Source: Bacilli bacterium (GTDB taxonomy: Bacteria > Bacillota_I > Bacilli_A > RF39 > UBA660). Taken from it: a DNA stretch of 64,000 nt. Positions 41,886-49,853 of the stretch are shown here, one piece after another (the stretch's first letter is position 1; every line of letters begins with the position of its first letter). The notes below the pieces were generated by a model. It was given only the letters and a program-made list of their open reading frames with translations, did not search any database and was not told the DNA's origin. Location of the stretch: positions 74,357 to 138,356 of the forward strand of contig JAFRUZ010000011.1 of assembly GCA_017438635.1 (NCBI GenBank). Direction: 5' to 3'. Both the position numbers and the translations under genes were made by a program.

Positions 41886-41955
41886 GTTAAATTATAACAC
41901 AAAACAAAAACTGGAAATAATTGCCAATTTTTTCCCAGTTTTTAATTTATCAATT
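41886..41955 (-). repeat. Junction module copy D
   Basis: Same module at the NERD-gene stop / DUF1810 start junction. Confidence 0.75.
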
Positions 41956-42846
41956 GGAAATATTTTTACTTGTATATTTACATTTAGGATAATTTGAACA
42001 ACCTATAAACTTTCCATATTTACTAGTTCTTTCAACTAATTTTCCGCCACATTTAGGACATTTATTAGGATCTTTATCATCTCCTACTAAAGTATTTTTA
42101 TAATAATCGTAATAATCAGTATCATCTTTTACATTAACGTTTAGAAATGTTTTTGCCCAATCTTCAGTAGCTTTTTTACTACCCCATAAAGTTTTATCAG
42201 ATAGTTTTAAATCATTTTGTATTCTTCTTACCAATGCATCCGCTCTAACAATCTTATCTTTTATATCCTTAGGTGCATACTTAGTATTAATAATAGTTTC
42301 TTCGTTTGTAGCACATACTAACACTTTATGAATATTAGTAAAATTGCCTTCATTTATAAGTCTTCTTACATAATTAAGTAATTTGTTTGAACTTAATCTA
42401 GTATTCCAAAGTTTTTTATATACTTCTCTTTGAGCTTCTACTTGTCTTAAAGGAGAATACATTCCTTTTCTAATCTTTTTACCATTAAAGTTATATTCTC
42501 TTAAGAAATCTCCTTTATCATTAATAATAATATTTCCATAAAGATTTTTACATTCAATAAAATAACAACAATACCTAGTTACTACTACATAATCTATTTG
42601 AGCAGTTAAGTTTTCATATTTTAAATTAATATCATGTAATACATACATACCTATATTAGCTTTAGATAATTGATATTTTATTTCTCTTTCTCCTAAGATA
42701 CCTTTCTTAACTACATATAATTCTTCTTTTATTTTTTCATTATTAGGATATTCTTTTAATAATTTTTCTAATGCATCGCGCTTTTTATTAAGACTGGACG
42801 TTTCTTTTAAAAATACTGTATCTTTAAAAGTATCAAACAACACATA
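41950..42846 (-). CDS. NERD-domain protein with C-terminal topoisomerase-type C4 zinc ribbon
   Basis: Promoter TGTTACAAT and RBS GGGGAG before MYVLFD. A NERD core (…YVVVTRYCCYFIECKN…) is present, and the C-terminus has CPKCGGKL…CSNYPKC. Confidence 0.6.
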   Translation of the reverse strand, partial: YVLFDTFKDTVFLKETSSLNKKRDALEKLLKEYPNNEKIKEELYVVKKGILGEREIKYQLSKANIGMYVLHDINLKYENLTAQIDYVVVTRYCCYFIECKNLYGNIIINDKGDFLREYNFNGKKIRKGMYSPLRQVEAQREVYKKLWNTRLSSNKLLNYVRRLINEGNFTNIHKVLVCATNEETIINTKYAPKDIKDKIVRADALVRRIQNDLKLSDKTLWGSKKATEDWAKTFLNVNVKDDTDYYDYYKNTLVGDDKDPNKCPKCGGKLVERTSKYGKFIGCSNYPKCKYTSKNISN

Positions 42847-43030
42847 CATCTCCCCAATTCTATTACATATCCATTGTAACATATTTATAAAATATTTGTA
42901 GATATTTAGTAAAGTTTGCGCAAAAAAACTATTATATTGCTCTCTTCAGGGGGCATCCATATGGAGTATTTATCTACTATTGCTTATTTTTACAAATGCT
43001 TATATATCAAGGGTTTTAGCTAAATCAAAA

Positions 43031-43153: not shown

Positions 43154-43918
43154 TTATTCAGATATAAATTTAAAACCTTTGGGAGCAACTAATGTATTGT
43201 CATTTCCATATCCAGAAATATAAAGTGTCGCTATTTGCTCTTTTCCAAGTAATTTCTTTTTATAAATATTCCATATATCTATATTTGTTTCCCAATCATC
43301 ATGAATTGTTGAGCCCACTCTCTCAAAAGATATTTCTTTACCATCTTCTGTTAATAACATACTTAAATAATCATATTCAGCCCCAATAGAAATAAGTTCT
43401 ATAGGGTTATGTTCTGTTAACCCAAAATCATCTTTTGATGTATCAGATAATGGTTTTTTTATTTCAAATGTGTCTGGATATTCTTTAATTTGATATTCAT
43501 ATTCTTCAATAAAGTTTTCTGTACCTTTTTCAAATAATCCCATATTCCAAGTTAGATCATTTGTTTTTTCATCCTTTATCATTATACATTTAGCCTGATA
43601 AATCAAAAATGCTAGTTTTTTTCTAGTATCATCATCTAAATTTTTCGTTATAGAATATCTTCTTAACAATCTATAAATATCTCGATACTTATCAGTCATA
43701 ATCATTATATCAGGTCTAGCTTCATCAATAACATCTGTTATAAAGTCATATGTTTGTAACATTTCAGCAAATGTAAACTGATGATTAGTAATATCCGAAT
43801 ACACTGATAGCATATTGGCATAGCATTTACAATCATTATCAGTTAATTCATCTTGCAAATTATTAACTTCCCTAAAGTTTTTCATTAAATCAAAAAAATC
43901 TTTATTTAGAACTTTCAT
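43154..43918 (-). CDS. Hypothetical protein
   Basis: RBS AGGTGA before MKVLNK. No recognisable domain. Confidence 0.4.
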   Translation of the reverse strand: MKVLNKDFFDLMKNFREVNNLQDELTDNDCKCYANMLSVYSDITNHQFTFAEMLQTYDFITDVIDEARPDIMIMTDKYRDIYRLLRRYSITKNLDDDTRKKLAFLIYQAKCIMIKDEKTNDLTWNMGLFEKGTENFIEEYEYQIKEYPDTFEIKKPLSDTSKDDFGLTEHNPIELISIGAEYDYLSMLLTEDGKEISFERVGSTIHDDWETNIDIWNIYKKKLLGKEQIATLYISGYGNDNTLVAPKGFKFISE

Positions 43919-44095
43919 ATCATCACCTACATTCACATTATACCATATATTTTCATAATTAAAGTGTTAATAACACTATTTTTATGCGCTTATTCATCTA
44001 ATTTGTCTATAGTATTAACAATATCATCTAGTTTGTTTCTATTATAGATGGCTTGGAAAATAGCAAAACCGATGATTAATTTCATCGGCTTACAT

Positions 44096-44470
44096 TCAAT
44101 CTAAATAAACAAAAGACTGAGGAACATAATTTATTCCAATATCACTAAGTTTTTTAGGCTTTTCATATACCTTGATGTGTCCTAATTTGTATGCAATTGC
44201 ATTTTTTTTATTCTTATAGTATTTAGAATAAAAATCTTTTGTAGTACCAGAATATTCTTTTGTTTGCTCCCATATTTTTTCAGGAGAATCCTCAAGTATT
44301 TCCTCAACATCTACCTCAGCTACTACTTTCATGATTGGCGATGTCGAATAAATAATCATTTTATCTATATTTCCCCTTTTAGCTTTTATTTTCCTATATT
44401 CATATTTTTTATTTCCAGAAAGAATTTCATCAACATATTCAGGATTAATCGGCATTAAAATCTTACACAT
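44096..44470 (-). CDS. ASCH (PUA-like) domain protein
   Basis: Small beta-barrel protein: MCKILMPINPEYVDEILSGNKKYEYRK…. An intrinsic terminator (CCGATGattaatttCATCGG + T-run) lies downstream at 44062-44092. Confidence 0.55.
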   Translation of the reverse strand: MCKILMPINPEYVDEILSGNKKYEYRKIKAKRGNIDKMIIYSTSPIMKVVAEVDVEEILEDSPEKIWEQTKEYSGTTKDFYSKYYKNKKNAIAYKLGHIKVYEKPKKLSDIGINYVPQSFVYLD

Positions 44471-44510
44471 TTTATCTACCTCCTATTATATGAATATTAT
44501 ATCACAATAT

Positions 44511-46004
44511 TTATATATTTTTATCTATTAAATAAATTTCTTTCTTCATTTTACACTTATCAAGTATTAATAATAGTTGTTCTTTATTTATATGTTGTAT
44601 AGTTTGAATTGGGCCTTTAACAATTCCTTTGTTTTTAAGAAATTTAAAATCCACATAATTATCAAAAGAATAATATAACTTAAATAGTATTACCAACTTG
44701 TCATTCTTAAATTTTTCTCTAAGTTCATTTTCGTCATATGCAGTTCTTTTTCTCACTAAATTAAACATATCATCAAAATCATCAAATCTGTTAAATACCG
44801 CATCAACAATGCCTAAAGATGTAATAGCTTTCTTTTTTCCAGATGAATAAAACAATAAGATAGAACCTTTTTGTATTTGCTTTATTTTTGAATTACATAA
44901 ATATGCTTTTTTTAATGAATTAGAGGCAGTGTTTTTTCCTTGAAAATCCTCTATACTTAATTGAGATTGTTTTTCGGATTCTTGAAATAATAAATGATGA
45001 TATTTATCACGAATAGGAACAAGAAATATCCTATTATCATCTATTGCAAAAAAAGGATAATAATTTTCTTTAATTTTCATACTTTTTACTAAAACATTTT
45101 CTAATTCGATTTTACCATCAGATCTTAAAGTTCTTTTTTTTGTGTACTTTTTAAAGCCATAACCTTCAAGCATTTCAATTAAAAACTCTTGCTTATCAAA
45201 TACTGTAACATATACTTCATCAACATTTTCTATTATTGCTTTATTAACAATGATTTTAATAAAGGTTTCCCCAATCCTTTTGCCTGTATCTGTAACTTTT
45301 AAAGTTGATATTTTCAATCTTTTAGCCGGTTTAAATGGTTTTAAAAAATCTTTATAGTCTTCATCTTTTTCTTCTACTTTAAGCATCAGAAATGAAGTTA
45401 TATTTCCATCAAGCTCTGTCACATAAGCTTGAGCCTCTTTTAATTGTTTCTTCTTAAACCACTTTTCAAATCCATCATAATCATATTTTAATGAATCAAA
45501 GAAACTATCATTTATATCTAATTCATGCAAATACTTATAATCTATAAAAACAGGTTTTCTAATTTCTTCAGAAACTTTTTCTTGGAATTTTTCAAGTGCT
45601 TGATCAATAGATAAAACTCTATTATGAAGCCCAACTTTTTTAGCTTTTTTAACTAATTCTTTATCATTAGTAATTAAATACTGAGCACAGTTTCTATATA
45701 TCGAAAACAATAACTCATTATCAATTACATCATTACTGCTGTTACATCCTACCAATTTATTAAATTGATCATTTACCTTTGGTGGCGATTTTATTTCTTT
45801 ATATACCGAAATTTTTGAAGAAAAAATATTTCTCTTCTCTTTATCTTGAATTTTCAATATTTCTTCTTTAGTTTTTGGATGTATTACAATTTTATATTGA
45901 TCGGAATCAAAAAGTCTCTTTGTTAATGTTGCAACTTTATTCTCTGTTACTACATAATCTTCTAAATATATAAACATATTAGTATCTAATAATATTTTTT
46001 CCAT
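44511..46004 (-). CDS. Three-domain fusion: N-terminal PIN nuclease, central GNAT-like acetyltransferase-like region, C-terminal PUA/EVE/ASCH-like domain
   Basis: PIN: LLDTNMFIY…ITNDKEL. Middle: …VYVTVFDKQEFLIEMLEGYGFKK. C-terminal: …ILLFYSSGKKKAITSLGIVDAVF…. Confidence 0.45.
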   Translation of the reverse strand: MEKILLDTNMFIYLEDYVVTENKVATLTKRLFDSDQYKIVIHPKTKEEILKIQDKEKRNIFSSKISVYKEIKSPPKVNDQFNKLVGCNSSNDVIDNELLFSIYRNCAQYLITNDKELVKKAKKVGLHNRVLSIDQALEKFQEKVSEEIRKPVFIDYKYLHELDINDSFFDSLKYDYDGFEKWFKKKQLKEAQAYVTELDGNITSFLMLKVEEKDEDYKDFLKPFKPAKRLKISTLKVTDTGKRIGETFIKIIVNKAIIENVDEVYVTVFDKQEFLIEMLEGYGFKKYTKKRTLRSDGKIELENVLVKSMKIKENYYPFFAIDDNRIFLVPIRDKYHHLLFQESEKQSQLSIEDFQGKNTASNSLKKAYLCNSKIKQIQKGSILLFYSSGKKKAITSLGIVDAVFNRFDDFDDMFNLVRKRTAYDENELREKFKNDKLVILFKLYYSFDNYVDFKFLKNKGIVKGPIQTIQHINKEQLLLILDKCKMKKEIYLIDKNI

Positions 46005-46033: not shown

Positions 46034-46945
46034 TTATATTATGTTTAAATATCGATCCAACATTTCATTTTCAGCTTTTGTTATTAACTTAACAAAATCC
46101 GTATAATCTCCTGTTGTATGTGCTTTATCAAGTGCTTCATAGTACTTTATTCTATTTTCTTTTTTTATTATTACTGGAACATATCCACTTTTTATTAAAT
46201 CCATATTCATCATTAATCTGCATAGTCTTCCATTACCATCTAAAAATGGATGAATTTTAACAAGTTCACCATGTAATAATGCTGCTCTTATTATTGGATG
46301 ATATCCATCCCAATCTTCATAATTAATAATTAATTTTTCCATTAACTCTGGAACTTTAATATATTCTGGTGGTCTATGCTTAGCACCACTAATAATTACA
46401 TTATGGTTTCTATATTTTCCAGCATTGTCATCATCTATACCTTTTAAAATTAATTGGTGTAAACCCTTAATATTCCATTCCGATATTTCGCTTTGATCCT
46501 TTACTAATTCTTCTAGGTATTCAATAGCATTTTCATGGTTAACTGCTTCTAAATGTTCTTTAACAGATTTACCTCCAATTGTAATACCTTCTAATACTAC
46601 TTTTGTTTCTTTTAATGTCAAAGTATTACCTTCTATACCATTACTGTTATATGTCCATTCCAAATTAATTGCATCTTGTAATGTTTTAACTGCTTCTTTT
46701 GATAATGGTCTTTCACTATTGAGTTTTGCTAATTTTTCATCTACTTCTTTAAAATAATCTTCTGGAAGATCAATTTTAAATTCAATTTCATCTTTTATTC
46801 TTTTATCAACTGGTTTTGTAGCATCATCTGGAATATTCCAAATTGTTCCAATTTTTTCTGCTCCTTCAATTCTTCCATCTTGAATAAGTCTTCTTATTCT
46901 TCTTTCAGAAATATTCCATTTTTCACTAGCTTCTTTGATTAGCAT
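46034..46945 (-). CDS. Fic/Doc family protein with N-terminal HTH
   Basis: Promoter TATAAT and RBS GAGAGGTGA before MLIKEASEKWNISERRIRRL (HTH). Fic motif HPFLDGNGRLCR. Confidence 0.8.
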   Translation of the reverse strand: MLIKEASEKWNISERRIRRLIQDGRIEGAEKIGTIWNIPDDATKPVDKRIKDEIEFKIDLPEDYFKEVDEKLAKLNSERPLSKEAVKTLQDAINLEWTYNSNGIEGNTLTLKETKVVLEGITIGGKSVKEHLEAVNHENAIEYLEELVKDQSEISEWNIKGLHQLILKGIDDDNAGKYRNHNVIISGAKHRPPEYIKVPELMEKLIINYEDWDGYHPIIRAALLHGELVKIHPFLDGNGRLCRLMMNMDLIKSGYVPVIIKKENRIKYYEALDKAHTTGDYTDFVKLITKAENEMLDRYLNII

Positions 46946-47107
46946 AATAATCACCTCTCTGTATAGATTATACCACCAACGGAACAATATGTCAATATAT
47001 TTTGTTCCGAACGCGGTATATTATTATTTTATTCATTTTTTTAACATATTATAAAAACATGTTAAAGTTTTTAAATATTTTTAACATGTTCTGTAATCTA
47101 TTATAAT

Positions 47108-47923
47108 TTATAAGCTATTATATTTCTTTATAAAATCATCATGAATTTTTATCAAGTAATCATCCAAATATTCTAATGCATTATTACAAATATCCTCAGG
47201 TATACCATAATATGCAGAAGCTATGCTCCCTGTAATAGCTGCAATTGTATCACTATCTCCACCAAGTGCTATTGCGTTTCTAATAGCATCTTCAAAATCA
47301 TTTGATTCTAAAAACGCTGCTAATGATTGTTTAACTGTTTCTACGCAATTAATATGAAAGTATTGTGGTTTCATAGTATCAATTTTCAAATCATCTATTT
47401 TAAAATAATTAGTTTCTATATATTCTTTTATTTCCTCTTTGCTTTTTCCATTAAGCGCCATGTGAATTGCAACTGCAACTGTTTCTGATCCATTTATGCT
47501 ATCAGGATGATTATGTGAAACATTTGTAACAATAGCTGAGAGTTTTTTTATTTCATCAATATTTTTTGCCACCACACTTACTGCTCCAATTCTCATAGCG
47601 GATCCATTCCCAAAACTACCATATGGTTTGTGATTTTCTGATATTATCCATCTATAAAAGCTTGGCCCATAACCACAGTTTGGATATTTTCTTCCTACTT
47701 CTGTCATTGACTTTATCACTTTTTCTTCAATATCACTATAATCATTCTTAGCTTCAAGGAATGCTTTTGCCACCGCTAGTGTCATTACTGAATCATCAGT
47801 ATATCTGCAGTATTTATAAAAAAATTCAAATTCTTTTCCATATTTATTATTTACCAGTTCAAATCTTGAACCAGATATATCCCCAATAATAGCTCCTAAT
47901 ATGACATCTTTTTTTAACTGCAT
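47108..47923 (-). CDS. ADP-ribosylglycohydrolase (ARH/DraG family)
   Basis: RBS GGAGGG before MQLKKDV. Motifs GAIIGDISGSRFE and GGDSDTIAAITGSIASAYYG. Confidence 0.75.
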   Translation of the reverse strand: MQLKKDVILGAIIGDISGSRFELVNNKYGKEFEFFYKYCRYTDDSVMTLAVAKAFLEAKNDYSDIEEKVIKSMTEVGRKYPNCGYGPSFYRWIISENHKPYGSFGNGSAMRIGAVSVVAKNIDEIKKLSAIVTNVSHNHPDSINGSETVAVAIHMALNGKSKEEIKEYIETNYFKIDDLKIDTMKPQYFHINCVETVKQSLAAFLESNDFEDAIRNAIALGGDSDTIAAITGSIASAYYGIPEDICNNALEYLDDYLIKIHDDFIKKYNSL

Positions 47924-48077
47924 ATTACCCTCCAATTTCTTACTTATTTTATTTACAGCTAACAATACTTATATATCATTATAACATATTTTAAAAATTC
48001 CTATATTAAGTGATAATGCAATTTTTTTTACACCTAAAAAGCATATATAGATTTTTAGCCACATATGCTTTCCAAGA

Positions 48078-48572
48078 CTAATTTTTATAATGATCTATAA
48101 TTTCAATAGCTTCTTCAACCCATTGTTCAAGATTATTTTTAATGTCATTATACGGATCTGAAGGATTAGGATTGTAGCACTTTACTACATCCGCTAATAC
48201 TTTGCCATCATTATTTATGATAATTGAATCAAATGGGTTTTTTCCTTTTGCACATTTTCCTGTATTTGGGTCTTTTAAATTATGAATATATATTCCTAAT
48301 AATCCTCTTTTTTCTTTCCATGCTTTTTTTATTTCGTATTTTACCCATTTTCTATTTGCGGTTTCTTCTCCAATCATAACAATAACACAGCTACGATAAT
48401 TCATGTTATCATCAATCCATCTTCTTATGCTATCGTCACCTTTTCTTTTTACTTCCTCCCAATCATTATCTGAAACCGGTTTATTATCTTCTAATGCTCC
48501 TATATTTCTAATTTGAGATACTCTCATTACATCATTTTTAAAATGAAAACTATAAAAGACTTGTCTTTTCAT
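48078..48572 (-). CDS. TIR-like domain protein (DUF1863, ThsB-like)
   Basis: RBS AAGGAGG before MKRQVFYSFHFKNDV. The middle region is …IGEETANRKWVKYEIKKA…GIYIHNLKDPNTGKCAKGKNPFD. It closely parallels the Thoeris ThsB pattern (…VFFSFHY…NRRWVRYEI…GIHI…KGPNPFD) as I recall it. Confidence 0.6.
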   Translation of the reverse strand: MKRQVFYSFHFKNDVMRVSQIRNIGALEDNKPVSDNDWEEVKRKGDDSIRRWIDDNMNYRSCVIVMIGEETANRKWVKYEIKKAWKEKRGLLGIYIHNLKDPNTGKCAKGKNPFDSIIINNDGKVLADVVKCYNPNPSDPYNDIKNNLEQWVEEAIEIIDHYKN

Positions 48573-48582
48573 ATATACCTCC

Positions 48583-49035
48583 TTATACAAATCTTACAAA
48601 AATACTAATTAAAATTAATAATGAATAATATGCATATATTGAAAATGAAAGAAATGAAGATAATATCATAGCTAACATTTCAAATCTTAGTTTTGTGTTT
48701 CTTGGATTCATATCATAGATTTCAATCTCATCGACAATACCTTTATTTAACTTTTCTAAAAAGATATTATATTTATCAATATATATTTTTTCAATTCCTA
48801 AATAACACGCATCAATAATGGCTCCAACTAGTGTAATAGCTATGGTAACCCACCAATAATTGGACATTTTCTCAAGTGCAATCAAAATCATTATAATAAT
48901 GGTGTATATAAGACAAATTGACGACTTTATATTGATACTATGATTACTCATTCTTAAAATATTATTTTGAAGTATTTGCATATAGCTAACAATAGAATTT
49001 TCATTTTTCAATTTCAATATACTCTTATTTATCAA
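48583..49035 (-). CDS. Small 3-TM membrane protein co-operonic with the TIR gene (possible SLATT-type effector)
   Basis: TTG start with RBS GGAGG. TM segments are at about aa 40-57, 64-84 and 120-148. It lies 10 nt upstream of the TIR gene. Confidence 0.45.
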   Translation of the reverse strand: MINKSILKLKNENSIVSYMQILQNNILRMSNHSINIKSSICLIYTIIIMILIALEKMSNYWWVTIAITLVGAIIDACYLGIEKIYIDKYNIFLEKLNKGIVDEIEIYDMNPRNTKLRFEMLAMILSSFLSFSIYAYYSLLILISIFVRFV

Positions 49036-49172
49036 AAATTATTACCTCCTTCCCTTATAAATATTTAATTATATATGTTAACACTATTTTTTATTTTTGC
49101 AAGATTAAAATGCTAAAATGTCATATTTTGGTGATTTTCGGTATTTTTAAATATTCATAAAAAAAAGAGATG

Positions 49173-49853
49173 CTAATCTAGCATTCCTAATTCTTTCATT
49201 TTTTCTTCTCTCAATTTAGATAGAGTTTTATCTCCACCTACTTTTTTCATAAAAGCATATATTTGTATAGCTTTCCATCCAGTTAATTCACATCCGAATT
49301 GATTAAAAGACATTATTTGATCTTTATATCTAATATTTCTACTATCTTCTATAGTAGCTATTTCTTCTGGATGATTAATTAAATATACTTCATCGCCTAT
49401 ATTAATAATACCTTGTTCTATTAACCAATCCATTTTAGGTAATTGAGTAGATTTTCTTTTAGTGGTAGCTTCATCTTCATCTTCCATTTCTTTAGCAGTT
49501 GGTTCTACTAAAACTAAATTATCTTCTAACCCATTAATCTTAGCTATGCAATGTAGCAAATCATATGCATCTTCAGCAGACATTTCAAAAAACTCTCTTT
49601 TCCTTTCTTTACCATCTATATTATCTTTAGCACGTAAAGAAGGATTTAATTTATCTATAATATCATGTACTGTTTTATCTTCTAAACGATGATTAACTTT
49701 ATAATAAGCATATAATCTAAAAGCAAATGGAACTGCTGACTTATCATTTAATTGTTTTAATCTACTATATACATCATCAGCATATCCTATTTTAATATAA
49801 TCCGGAAATGACGGATTTTTTAATATGTAAATATATCCTACTGTATCATTCAT
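49173..49853 (-). CDS. T5orf172 (GIY-YIG-like, MUG113) domain protein with DUF4357-like C-terminus
   Basis: GYIYILKNPSFPDYIKIGYADDVYSRLKQLN motif. It sits immediately downstream of hsdS. Confidence 0.6.
   Translation of the reverse strand: MNDTVGYIYILKNPSFPDYIKIGYADDVYSRLKQLNDKSAVPFAFRLYAYYKVNHRLEDKTVHDIIDKLNPSLRAKDNIDGKERKREFFEMSAEDAYDLLHCIAKINGLEDNLVLVEPTAKEMEDEDEATTKRKSTQLPKMDWLIEQGIINIGDEVYLINHPEEIATIEDSRNIRYKDQIMSFNQFGCELTGWKAIQIYAFMKKVGGDKTLSKLREEKMKELGMLD

Follow-up and report, generated by a model that had tools for sequence, protein, structure and literature searches.

Two adjacent genes in the 64,000-nucleotide stretch of Bacilli DNA analyzed here (the window) very probably form a ThsF-ThsB (type V) Thoeris system, judging from sequence profiles and gene context, with the genes in the order thsF then thsB. 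Systems of this kind are already known: they were predicted in PADLOC and validated in December 2025, and the window operon is a divergent further case. A preliminary description of the locus had called the pair experimentally uncharacterized. This needs correcting, as homologous type V systems have been verified in Bacillus subtilis and had been catalogued earlier as PDC-M50.

The two-gene operon and its defense island

The locus contains the following features:

48583-49035, minus strand: thsF, first gene of the pair, TTG start; predicted 150-aa effector with three transmembrane (TM) helices, PADLOC PDC-M50A
48078-48572, minus strand: thsB, second gene of the pair, ATG start; 164-aa TIR-domain protein, predicted sensor and signal synthase
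49045-49049, minus strand: Shine-Dalgarno sequence GGAGG of thsF, 9 nt 5' of the TTG, read directly from the sequence
48578-48582, minus strand: Shine-Dalgarno sequence GGAGG of thsB, abutting the thsF stop, read directly from the sequence
47108-47923 or 47108-47965 (two alternative starts), minus strand: ADP-ribosylglycohydrolase (ARH) gene, co-oriented with thsB

Both open reading frames proposed at the outset are present, on the minus strand and with the 10-nt gap described. The stop codon of thsF is a TAA at 48583-48585, and the Shine-Dalgarno sequence of thsB follows directly after it, which implies co-transcription and tight translational linkage. In six metagenome copies of the locus, independent gene callers give identical 150-aa and 164-aa products. 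Predictions of promoters and terminators carry little information at 26% GC, with 31 promoter-like sites against 25 expected. The TIR gene is the only one in the window, and thsF likewise occurs once. The gene table covering 10 kb on either side of an identical locus (L002) lists no SIR2, SLOG/STALD, or Macro gene, and none of these domains occurs among the window neighbor proteins scanned with Pfam and PADLOC. The original observation that no ThsA-like gene lies within about 10 kb is therefore upheld.

The surroundings are those of a defense island. Confirmed neighbors are hsdRMS (type I R-M), T5orf172, ARH, HTH-Fic, and NERD with a zinc ribbon; PADLOC labels the T5orf172 gene PDC-S57 and the HTH-Fic gene PDC-S04 / SoFic-like, and recognizes a PDC-M11A/B pair. 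These neighbors had been named correctly in the preliminary description. Its PIN fusion corresponds to PDC-M11A, for which Pfam gives a weak EVE match and does not confirm a PIN domain. The ARH, Fic, T5orf172, type I R-M, and PDC-M11 genes are best read as independent occupants of the same island.

The TIR protein, the ThsF family, and type V Thoeris

The 164-aa protein had been proposed to be a ThsB-type TIR, and profile searches agree. It matches Pfam PF08937 (ThsB_TIR) at 1.5e-27 and, among PADLOC models, ThsB at 1.9e-75 and PDC-M50B at about 9e-67. All the motifs singled out initially (VFYSFHF, NRKWVKYEI, GIYIH, and KGKNPFD) are found in it. Matches to proteins of known structure include PDB 8wcf_A (3.4e-55) and B. 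cereus ThsB (6lhy/9b7d; 4.2e-19); a literature search on 8WCF found nothing relevant. Residue E80 sits in a KYEI motif and, in the alignment, takes the position of the glutamate in the RYEI motif of B. cereus ThsB, which we take to be the catalytic residue E85. The window protein thus has a glutamate of the catalytic type in place, and E80 is kept in 120 of 121 close homologues.

Close homologues of this TIR (70-81% identity) are abundant across phyla. Those that are 71-81% identical occur in two settings, either with a ThsF-family gene or within canonical type I Thoeris. The TIR with 71% identity belongs to a type I operon with the arrangement ThsB-ThsA(SIR2_2+STALD)-ThsB. On this evidence, effectors are swapped around a conserved TIR sensor, with TIRs more than 70% identical predicted to serve a soluble NADase in one operon and a membrane effector in another.

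The partner of the TIR had been described as a protein with three TM helices, a reading backed by hydropathy and by structure prediction. Kyte-Doolittle analysis places three hydrophobic segments at about residues 36-56, 61-81, and 127-149, and the AlphaFold2 monomer model (mean pLDDT 95.7) contains helices at 13-53, 62-98, 119-127, and 131-149. The protein matches PADLOC PDC-M50A (PDLC04686) at 8.6e-12 and no Pfam family. We found no ThsF structure: searching PDB sequences with a profile produced no meaningful match, and a Foldseek search of the BFVD viral structures returned nothing at E < 1.

A word-index homologue search with the window protein recovered only three relatives. HMMER, run exhaustively over 1.84 billion cluster representatives, raised the number to 329 (E<=1e-3), almost all of them between 140 and 155 aa in length. 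An alignment of 95 members describes a coherent family with the consensus LQxxIxRMAxNSxxCKTW-(TM1)-(TM2)-LDAYYLxLERxFRxxYNxFVxKL-...-(TM3). Its sole invariant residue is E82, and Q23, I26, R28, S33, K37, D75, Y78, L79, S130, and Y137 are near-invariant. The window protein keeps every one of these residues and belongs to a divergent subclade that shares only 20-30% identity with the bulk of the family. Scanning the 95 members against Pfam revealed no consistent family, with weak matches to 8xMP in four, DUF2270 in one, and SLATT_6 in one; the literature on 8xMP offered nothing relevant.

A recent preprint defines Thoeris types V to XI (Yirmiya et al., bioRxiv Dec 2025, doi 10.64898/2025.12.03.692087). 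In type V, ThsB is paired with ThsF, which crosses the membrane with three helices and bears the authors' label "DUF2270," and the systems of B. thuringiensis DAR 81934 and Bacillus sp. 1NLA3E were verified in B. subtilis (doi 10.64898/2025.12.03.692087). Protein P0273 matches the verified ThsB of B. thuringiensis DAR 81934, as given in Table S1, at 100% identity. The gene directly 3' of it (L097, 3773-4198), which encodes 141 aa and has no Pfam match on record, is therefore the verified ThsF. In a separate search of plasmids, tblastn with the B. thuringiensis ThsB retrieved nothing but paralogous TIRs set in different surroundings (SIR2, Macro, or no small ORF).

Several comparisons connect the verified ThsF with the window protein. 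Aligned to the profile of the window protein's family by hhalign, it scores 99.7% (E 7.2e-26) over 128 columns, with both motifs in common. A family HMM from which the window sequence was left out assigns 97.7 bits to the B. thuringiensis protein and 124 bits to the window protein. The two share an identical layout of three hydrophobic segments. Direct BLASTP finds little similarity between them (27% identity across 83 aa, E 0.001), so membership of the window protein in the ThsF family rests on profiles, where the support is strong. PDLC04686, the PDC-M50A model matched by the window protein, also matches the verified ThsF at 1.8e-48, and hence, as far as profiles tell, PDC-M50 and type V Thoeris are one entity.

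The published domain label deserves a comment. HMMER detects PF10028 (DUF2270) neither in the window protein nor in the verified ThsF, and it is absent from 94 of the 95 family members. "DUF2270" appears to be a remote-homology label from a more sensitive method, and it does not discriminate membership. In the portion of Table S1 available to us, the TIR domains most similar to the window ThsB carry the label "DUF2270 - Type V" (53-58% identity), and type XI TIRs placed in the same published cluster are 41-43% identical to it. None of the genomes retrieved for this analysis is named in the portions of the preprint tables available to us.

We then turned to one genome per GTDB species, scanning with an alignment of a 16-sequence subset of the ThsF family and the motif LDAYYLxLE[RK]. 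This yielded 231 relatives, and the best 80 loci were examined; they come from many bacterial phyla and some archaea. A TIR gene lies directly adjacent to thsF in 76 of these best 80, with the TIR clade varying. In 66 the neighbor is recognized by a narrow TIR HMM and is nearly always co-oriented, the TIR gene being upstream of thsF in 55 loci and downstream in 7. Ten further loci have a neighbor from another TIR clade or a TIR fusion, confirmed with Pfam (TIR-TPR, Roc-COR-TIR, TIR-BNR, and short TIR_2). The remaining four comprise two in which the contig ends just upstream, one with an upstream transposase, and one apparent orphan. IMG/VR contributed five clear ThsF loci, all with a TIR gene alongside.

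The pair also recurs in unrelated surroundings, next to MTase, HNH, and AIPR genes at one locus (L001, where the pair is 61% identical to that of the window) and next to ToxN at another (L008). The preliminary description had allowed that the membrane protein might be a housekeeping protein found without TIR partners. Adjacency to a TIR gene in 76 of 80 loci defeats this reading. Its main proposal, that a small three-TM protein stands in the place of ThsA, fares better, for this protein is the only partner conserved with the TIR.

Predicted mechanism and competing explanations

From the published work on type V and the general biology of Thoeris, the window operon would be an anti-phage defense system. 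ThsB is expected to sense phage infection and to make from NAD+ an isomer of cyclic ADP-ribose, with 1''-3' gcADPR (3'cADPR) as the likeliest product. That molecule is favored because close relatives of the TIR lie in type I operons and because of the published type V data; on balance we consider it the probable signal of the window ThsB, and thus probably the same signal as in type I Thoeris. Both verified type V TIRs made 3'cADPR, and the TIR alone produces a diffusible signal whose toxicity depends on the effector (doi 10.64898/2025.12.03.692087). Cells with the B. thuringiensis system were poisoned by exogenous 3'cADPR (doi 10.64898/2025.12.03.692087).

ThsF is predicted to have its N terminus inside the cell because of the positive-inside rule, which would put its amphipathic N-terminal helix, and also the one that follows TM2, in the cytoplasm. 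In this topology, conserved polar residues gather at the cytoplasmic membrane interface: Q23, R28, S33, and K37 before TM1, and D75, Y78, and E82 at the end of TM2. We regard these residues as the likely ligand site in the model. The published ThsF model is an AlphaFold 3 (AF3) heptamer ring with positively charged pockets between protomers (doi 10.64898/2025.12.03.692087), and the predicted interface position of the conserved R28 and K37 is consistent with such pockets. Binding of the signal at this interface would cause a ring-shaped ThsF homo-oligomer to assemble or open, breaching the membrane. Growth arrest or cell death would follow before phage progeny are released, that is, abortive infection. 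The best reading of the pair thus retains the core of the preliminary description, a minimal TIR-signalling abortive-infection module with a membrane effector, and discards its SLATT and ARH associations along with its view of the pair as uncharacterized.

The alternative that survives best keeps a ThsF-type Thoeris system but replaces the signal with something other than 3'cADPR (2'cADPR, cADPR, His-ADPR, or another product) or requires a second infection cue. The divergence of the window ThsF subclade from most of the family speaks for this. Furthermore, added 3'cADPR was not toxic for the 1NLA3E type V system and so did not trigger it, and type XI TIRs, which are paired with HIT-hydrolase effectors and fall in the same published cluster, yielded no known signal (doi 10.64898/2025.12.03.692087). 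On the other side stand the production of 3'cADPR by both verified type V TIRs and the fact that the nearest TIRs not associated with ThsF, at 71% identity, occur in type I operons, where the effector responds specifically to 3'cADPR. We therefore think a different signal or an added cue unlikely, if well worth bearing in mind.

The ARH gene raises the question of a three-gene module in which ARH degrades the TIR signal, either for reset or against autoimmunity. ARH lies on the same strand as thsB and follows it after 113 nt (TTG ORF) or 154 nt (the start chosen by gene callers), with no terminator-like site detected between the two. ARH-family enzymes cleave 1''-O-glycosidic ADP-ribose bonds, the type of bond present in gcADPR. 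None of the 94 independent loci (the 80 genome loci, L001, L008-L014, and L099-L104), however, contains an ARH homologue, and such homologues were found only in identical copies of the window island; the available portions of the preprint tables contain no ARH-type effector or accessory either. On co-occurrence (0 of 94 independent loci), ARH is thus rejected as a system component, and the link between ARH and the TIR pair suggested in the preliminary description is not supported. We consider the three-gene module very improbable. Equally doubtful is a combined scenario in which the divergent ThsF subclade of AT-rich gut Bacilli answers to a product other than 3'cADPR and ARH, locally recruited, cleaves the 1''-O-glycosidic bond of that signal. 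If true, ARH would be a host-encoded "off switch" for Thoeris; no conserved feature supports this.

A non-signalling pair, with the TIR as an NAD+-depleting effector and the membrane protein as its sensor or anchor, has a precedent in certain bacterial TIRs that work as NADase effectors. This arrangement is hard to reconcile with a ThsF family whose TIR partners vary freely among many unrelated clades and fusions, with near-identical TIRs that serve SIR2-SLOG effectors, and with a verified homologue whose TIR alone makes a diffusible signal and causes toxicity only with the effector. It therefore seems highly unlikely. Least credible is the SLATT/DUF4231 resemblance raised in the preliminary description, by which the membrane protein would be a SLATT-type effector as in type VII (ThsH) responding to canonical cADPR: it is a small helical membrane protein adjoining a TIR gene, and one of the 95 family members has a marginal SLATT_6 match (E 0.0077), but neither SLATT nor DUF4231 models match the window protein at E<=10, the other 94 members have none to SLATT models, and the family profile matches the verified ThsF at E 7e-26.

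Comparison with known systems

A type V reading of the window pair has practical value for annotation. Because ThsF falls in no Pfam family, standard annotation pipelines label it "hypothetical," which leaves the TIR looking like an orphan ThsB. The analysis ties together the PDC-M50 candidate, type V Thoeris, and a family of at least 329 clusters found almost always beside a TIR gene. The locus also illustrates the swapping of Thoeris effectors, and it is one more candidate for work on signal binding and membrane damage by ThsF.

The verified type V systems of B. thuringiensis DAR 81934 and 1NLA3E resemble the window locus most closely. They share a two-gene operon of a TIR and a three-TM protein of about 140-150 aa, effectors that are homologous at the profile level, and a defense-island context. 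The window differs in its gene order, thsF-thsB, whereas the verified system and most genome loci (55 versus 7) have thsB-thsF. Its 164-aa ThsB belongs to another clade than the 252-aa ThsB of B. thuringiensis, and its effector, which shares 27% identity with B. thuringiensis ThsF across 83 aa, falls in a divergent subclade. The host also differs, being an AT-rich (26% GC) uncultured Bacilli MAG. The PDC-M50 models of PADLOC-DB v2.0.0 are both matched by adjacent window genes (PDC-M50A at 8.6e-12 and PDC-M50B at about 9e-67); unlike type V, PDC-M50 is a bioinformatic candidate label without a described function, and our search for literature on it found nothing relevant.

Type I Thoeris has the TIR sensor clade in common with the window, at 71% identity to a ThsB of the ThsB-ThsA-ThsB operon. 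The effectors set the two apart: in the window it is a small membrane protein rather than a soluble NADase, with no SIR2 or SLOG within 10 kb on either side. Types II (TM-Macro ThsC) and VII (SLATT ThsH) resemble the predicted window system in combining TIR signalling with a membrane-disrupting effector. The window effector, however, has neither a Macro nor a SLATT domain, and the signals of these types, His-ADPR in type II and canonical cADPR in type VII, differ from the one expected at the window.

Neighbours and boundary of the island

Several genes around the thsF–thsB pair match PADLOC candidate (PDC) models. These and other neighbours, all on the minus strand, are listed in order of descending coordinate.

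Genes neighbouring the thsF–thsB pair (window positions)
49173-49853, minus strand: T5orf172/MUG113 protein with a RAMA-like C-terminus, directly after hsdS (Pfam and PADLOC scans)
47108-47965, minus strand: ADP-ribosylglycohydrolase, ARH (PF03747, 2.3e-37)
46034-46987, minus strand: HTH-Fic protein, following ARH (PADLOC PDC-S04/SoFic-like, ~1e-35)
44096-46004, minus strand: PDC-M11A/B candidate pair, consisting of a protein of 497 aa and an ASCH protein of 124 aa (PADLOC)
43154-43936, minus strand: 260-aa protein between PDC-M11B and NERD, with no Pfam family

The T5orf172/MUG113 protein matches the single-gene candidate PDC-S57 (5.7e-72). Among the loci compared, ARH is confined to this island, and none accompanies ThsF–ThsB elsewhere. 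Both members of the PDC-M11 pair match their PADLOC models very strongly (1.7e-141 for PDC-M11A and 3e-43 for PDC-M11B), marking them as a putative defence pair within the island. The 497-aa protein had been described from the sequence as a PIN fusion, a label that Pfam does not bear out, since the scan returns a weak EVE-like region and nothing else. In PADLOC, the adjoining 260-aa protein matches JetB alone, and at marginal significance (E 0.0024).

At the end of the island, we compared the region of the NERD/zinc-ribbon gene (window 41950-42882) with L004, one metagenomic copy of the island. In this copy, a tyrosine integrase and HTH genes stand in place of the NERD/zinc-ribbon gene (L004:10164-13541), so the island boundary differs between strains. 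Such a variable boundary suggests a mobile or integrative element.

Other partners of ThsF and viral contigs

Some ThsF genes are partnered by large TIR fusions (TIR/SEFIR-TPR, Roc-COR-TIR and TIR-BNR) and not by a short ThsB. These arrangements occur in genomes at L033:4422-6827, L059:4351-6546, L046:187-2208 and L052:4561-6237, and they suggest that alternative sensor modules feed the same small effector.

ThsF–ThsB pairs are also carried by predicted viral or prophage contigs from IMG/VR (L100:2977-4493 and L101/L102:2139-3435). In L100, two TIR genes come after thsF: one resembles BcThsB, and the other matches, at 9.1e-92, a TIR HMM built from the window TIR protein together with close homologues. 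On L101 and L102, a long ThsB of the B. thuringiensis type is followed by ThsF, with serine recombinases on the flanks.

Relatives of the two proteins

Among solved structures, the nearest to the window TIR is PDB 8wcf_A, a 160-aa protein entered as 'Molecular chaperone Tir' whose structure is apparently unpublished. It aligns over the full length at E 3.4e-55, whereas B. cereus ThsB is much more distant (4.2e-19).

ThsF is labelled 'DUF2270 (PF10028)' by Yirmiya et al. (bioRxiv 2025, doi 10.64898/2025.12.03.692087). HMMER detected PF10028 neither in the verified B. thuringiensis ThsF (L097:3773-4195) nor in 94 of the 95 aligned family members. The same verified protein weakly matches PF24838 ('8xMP, octameric membrane protein') over nearly its full length (E 0.012), as do four of the 95 members, again almost end to end (best 1.2e-4). 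Judged from these profile matches, the ThsF family may be remotely related to this ring-forming membrane family.
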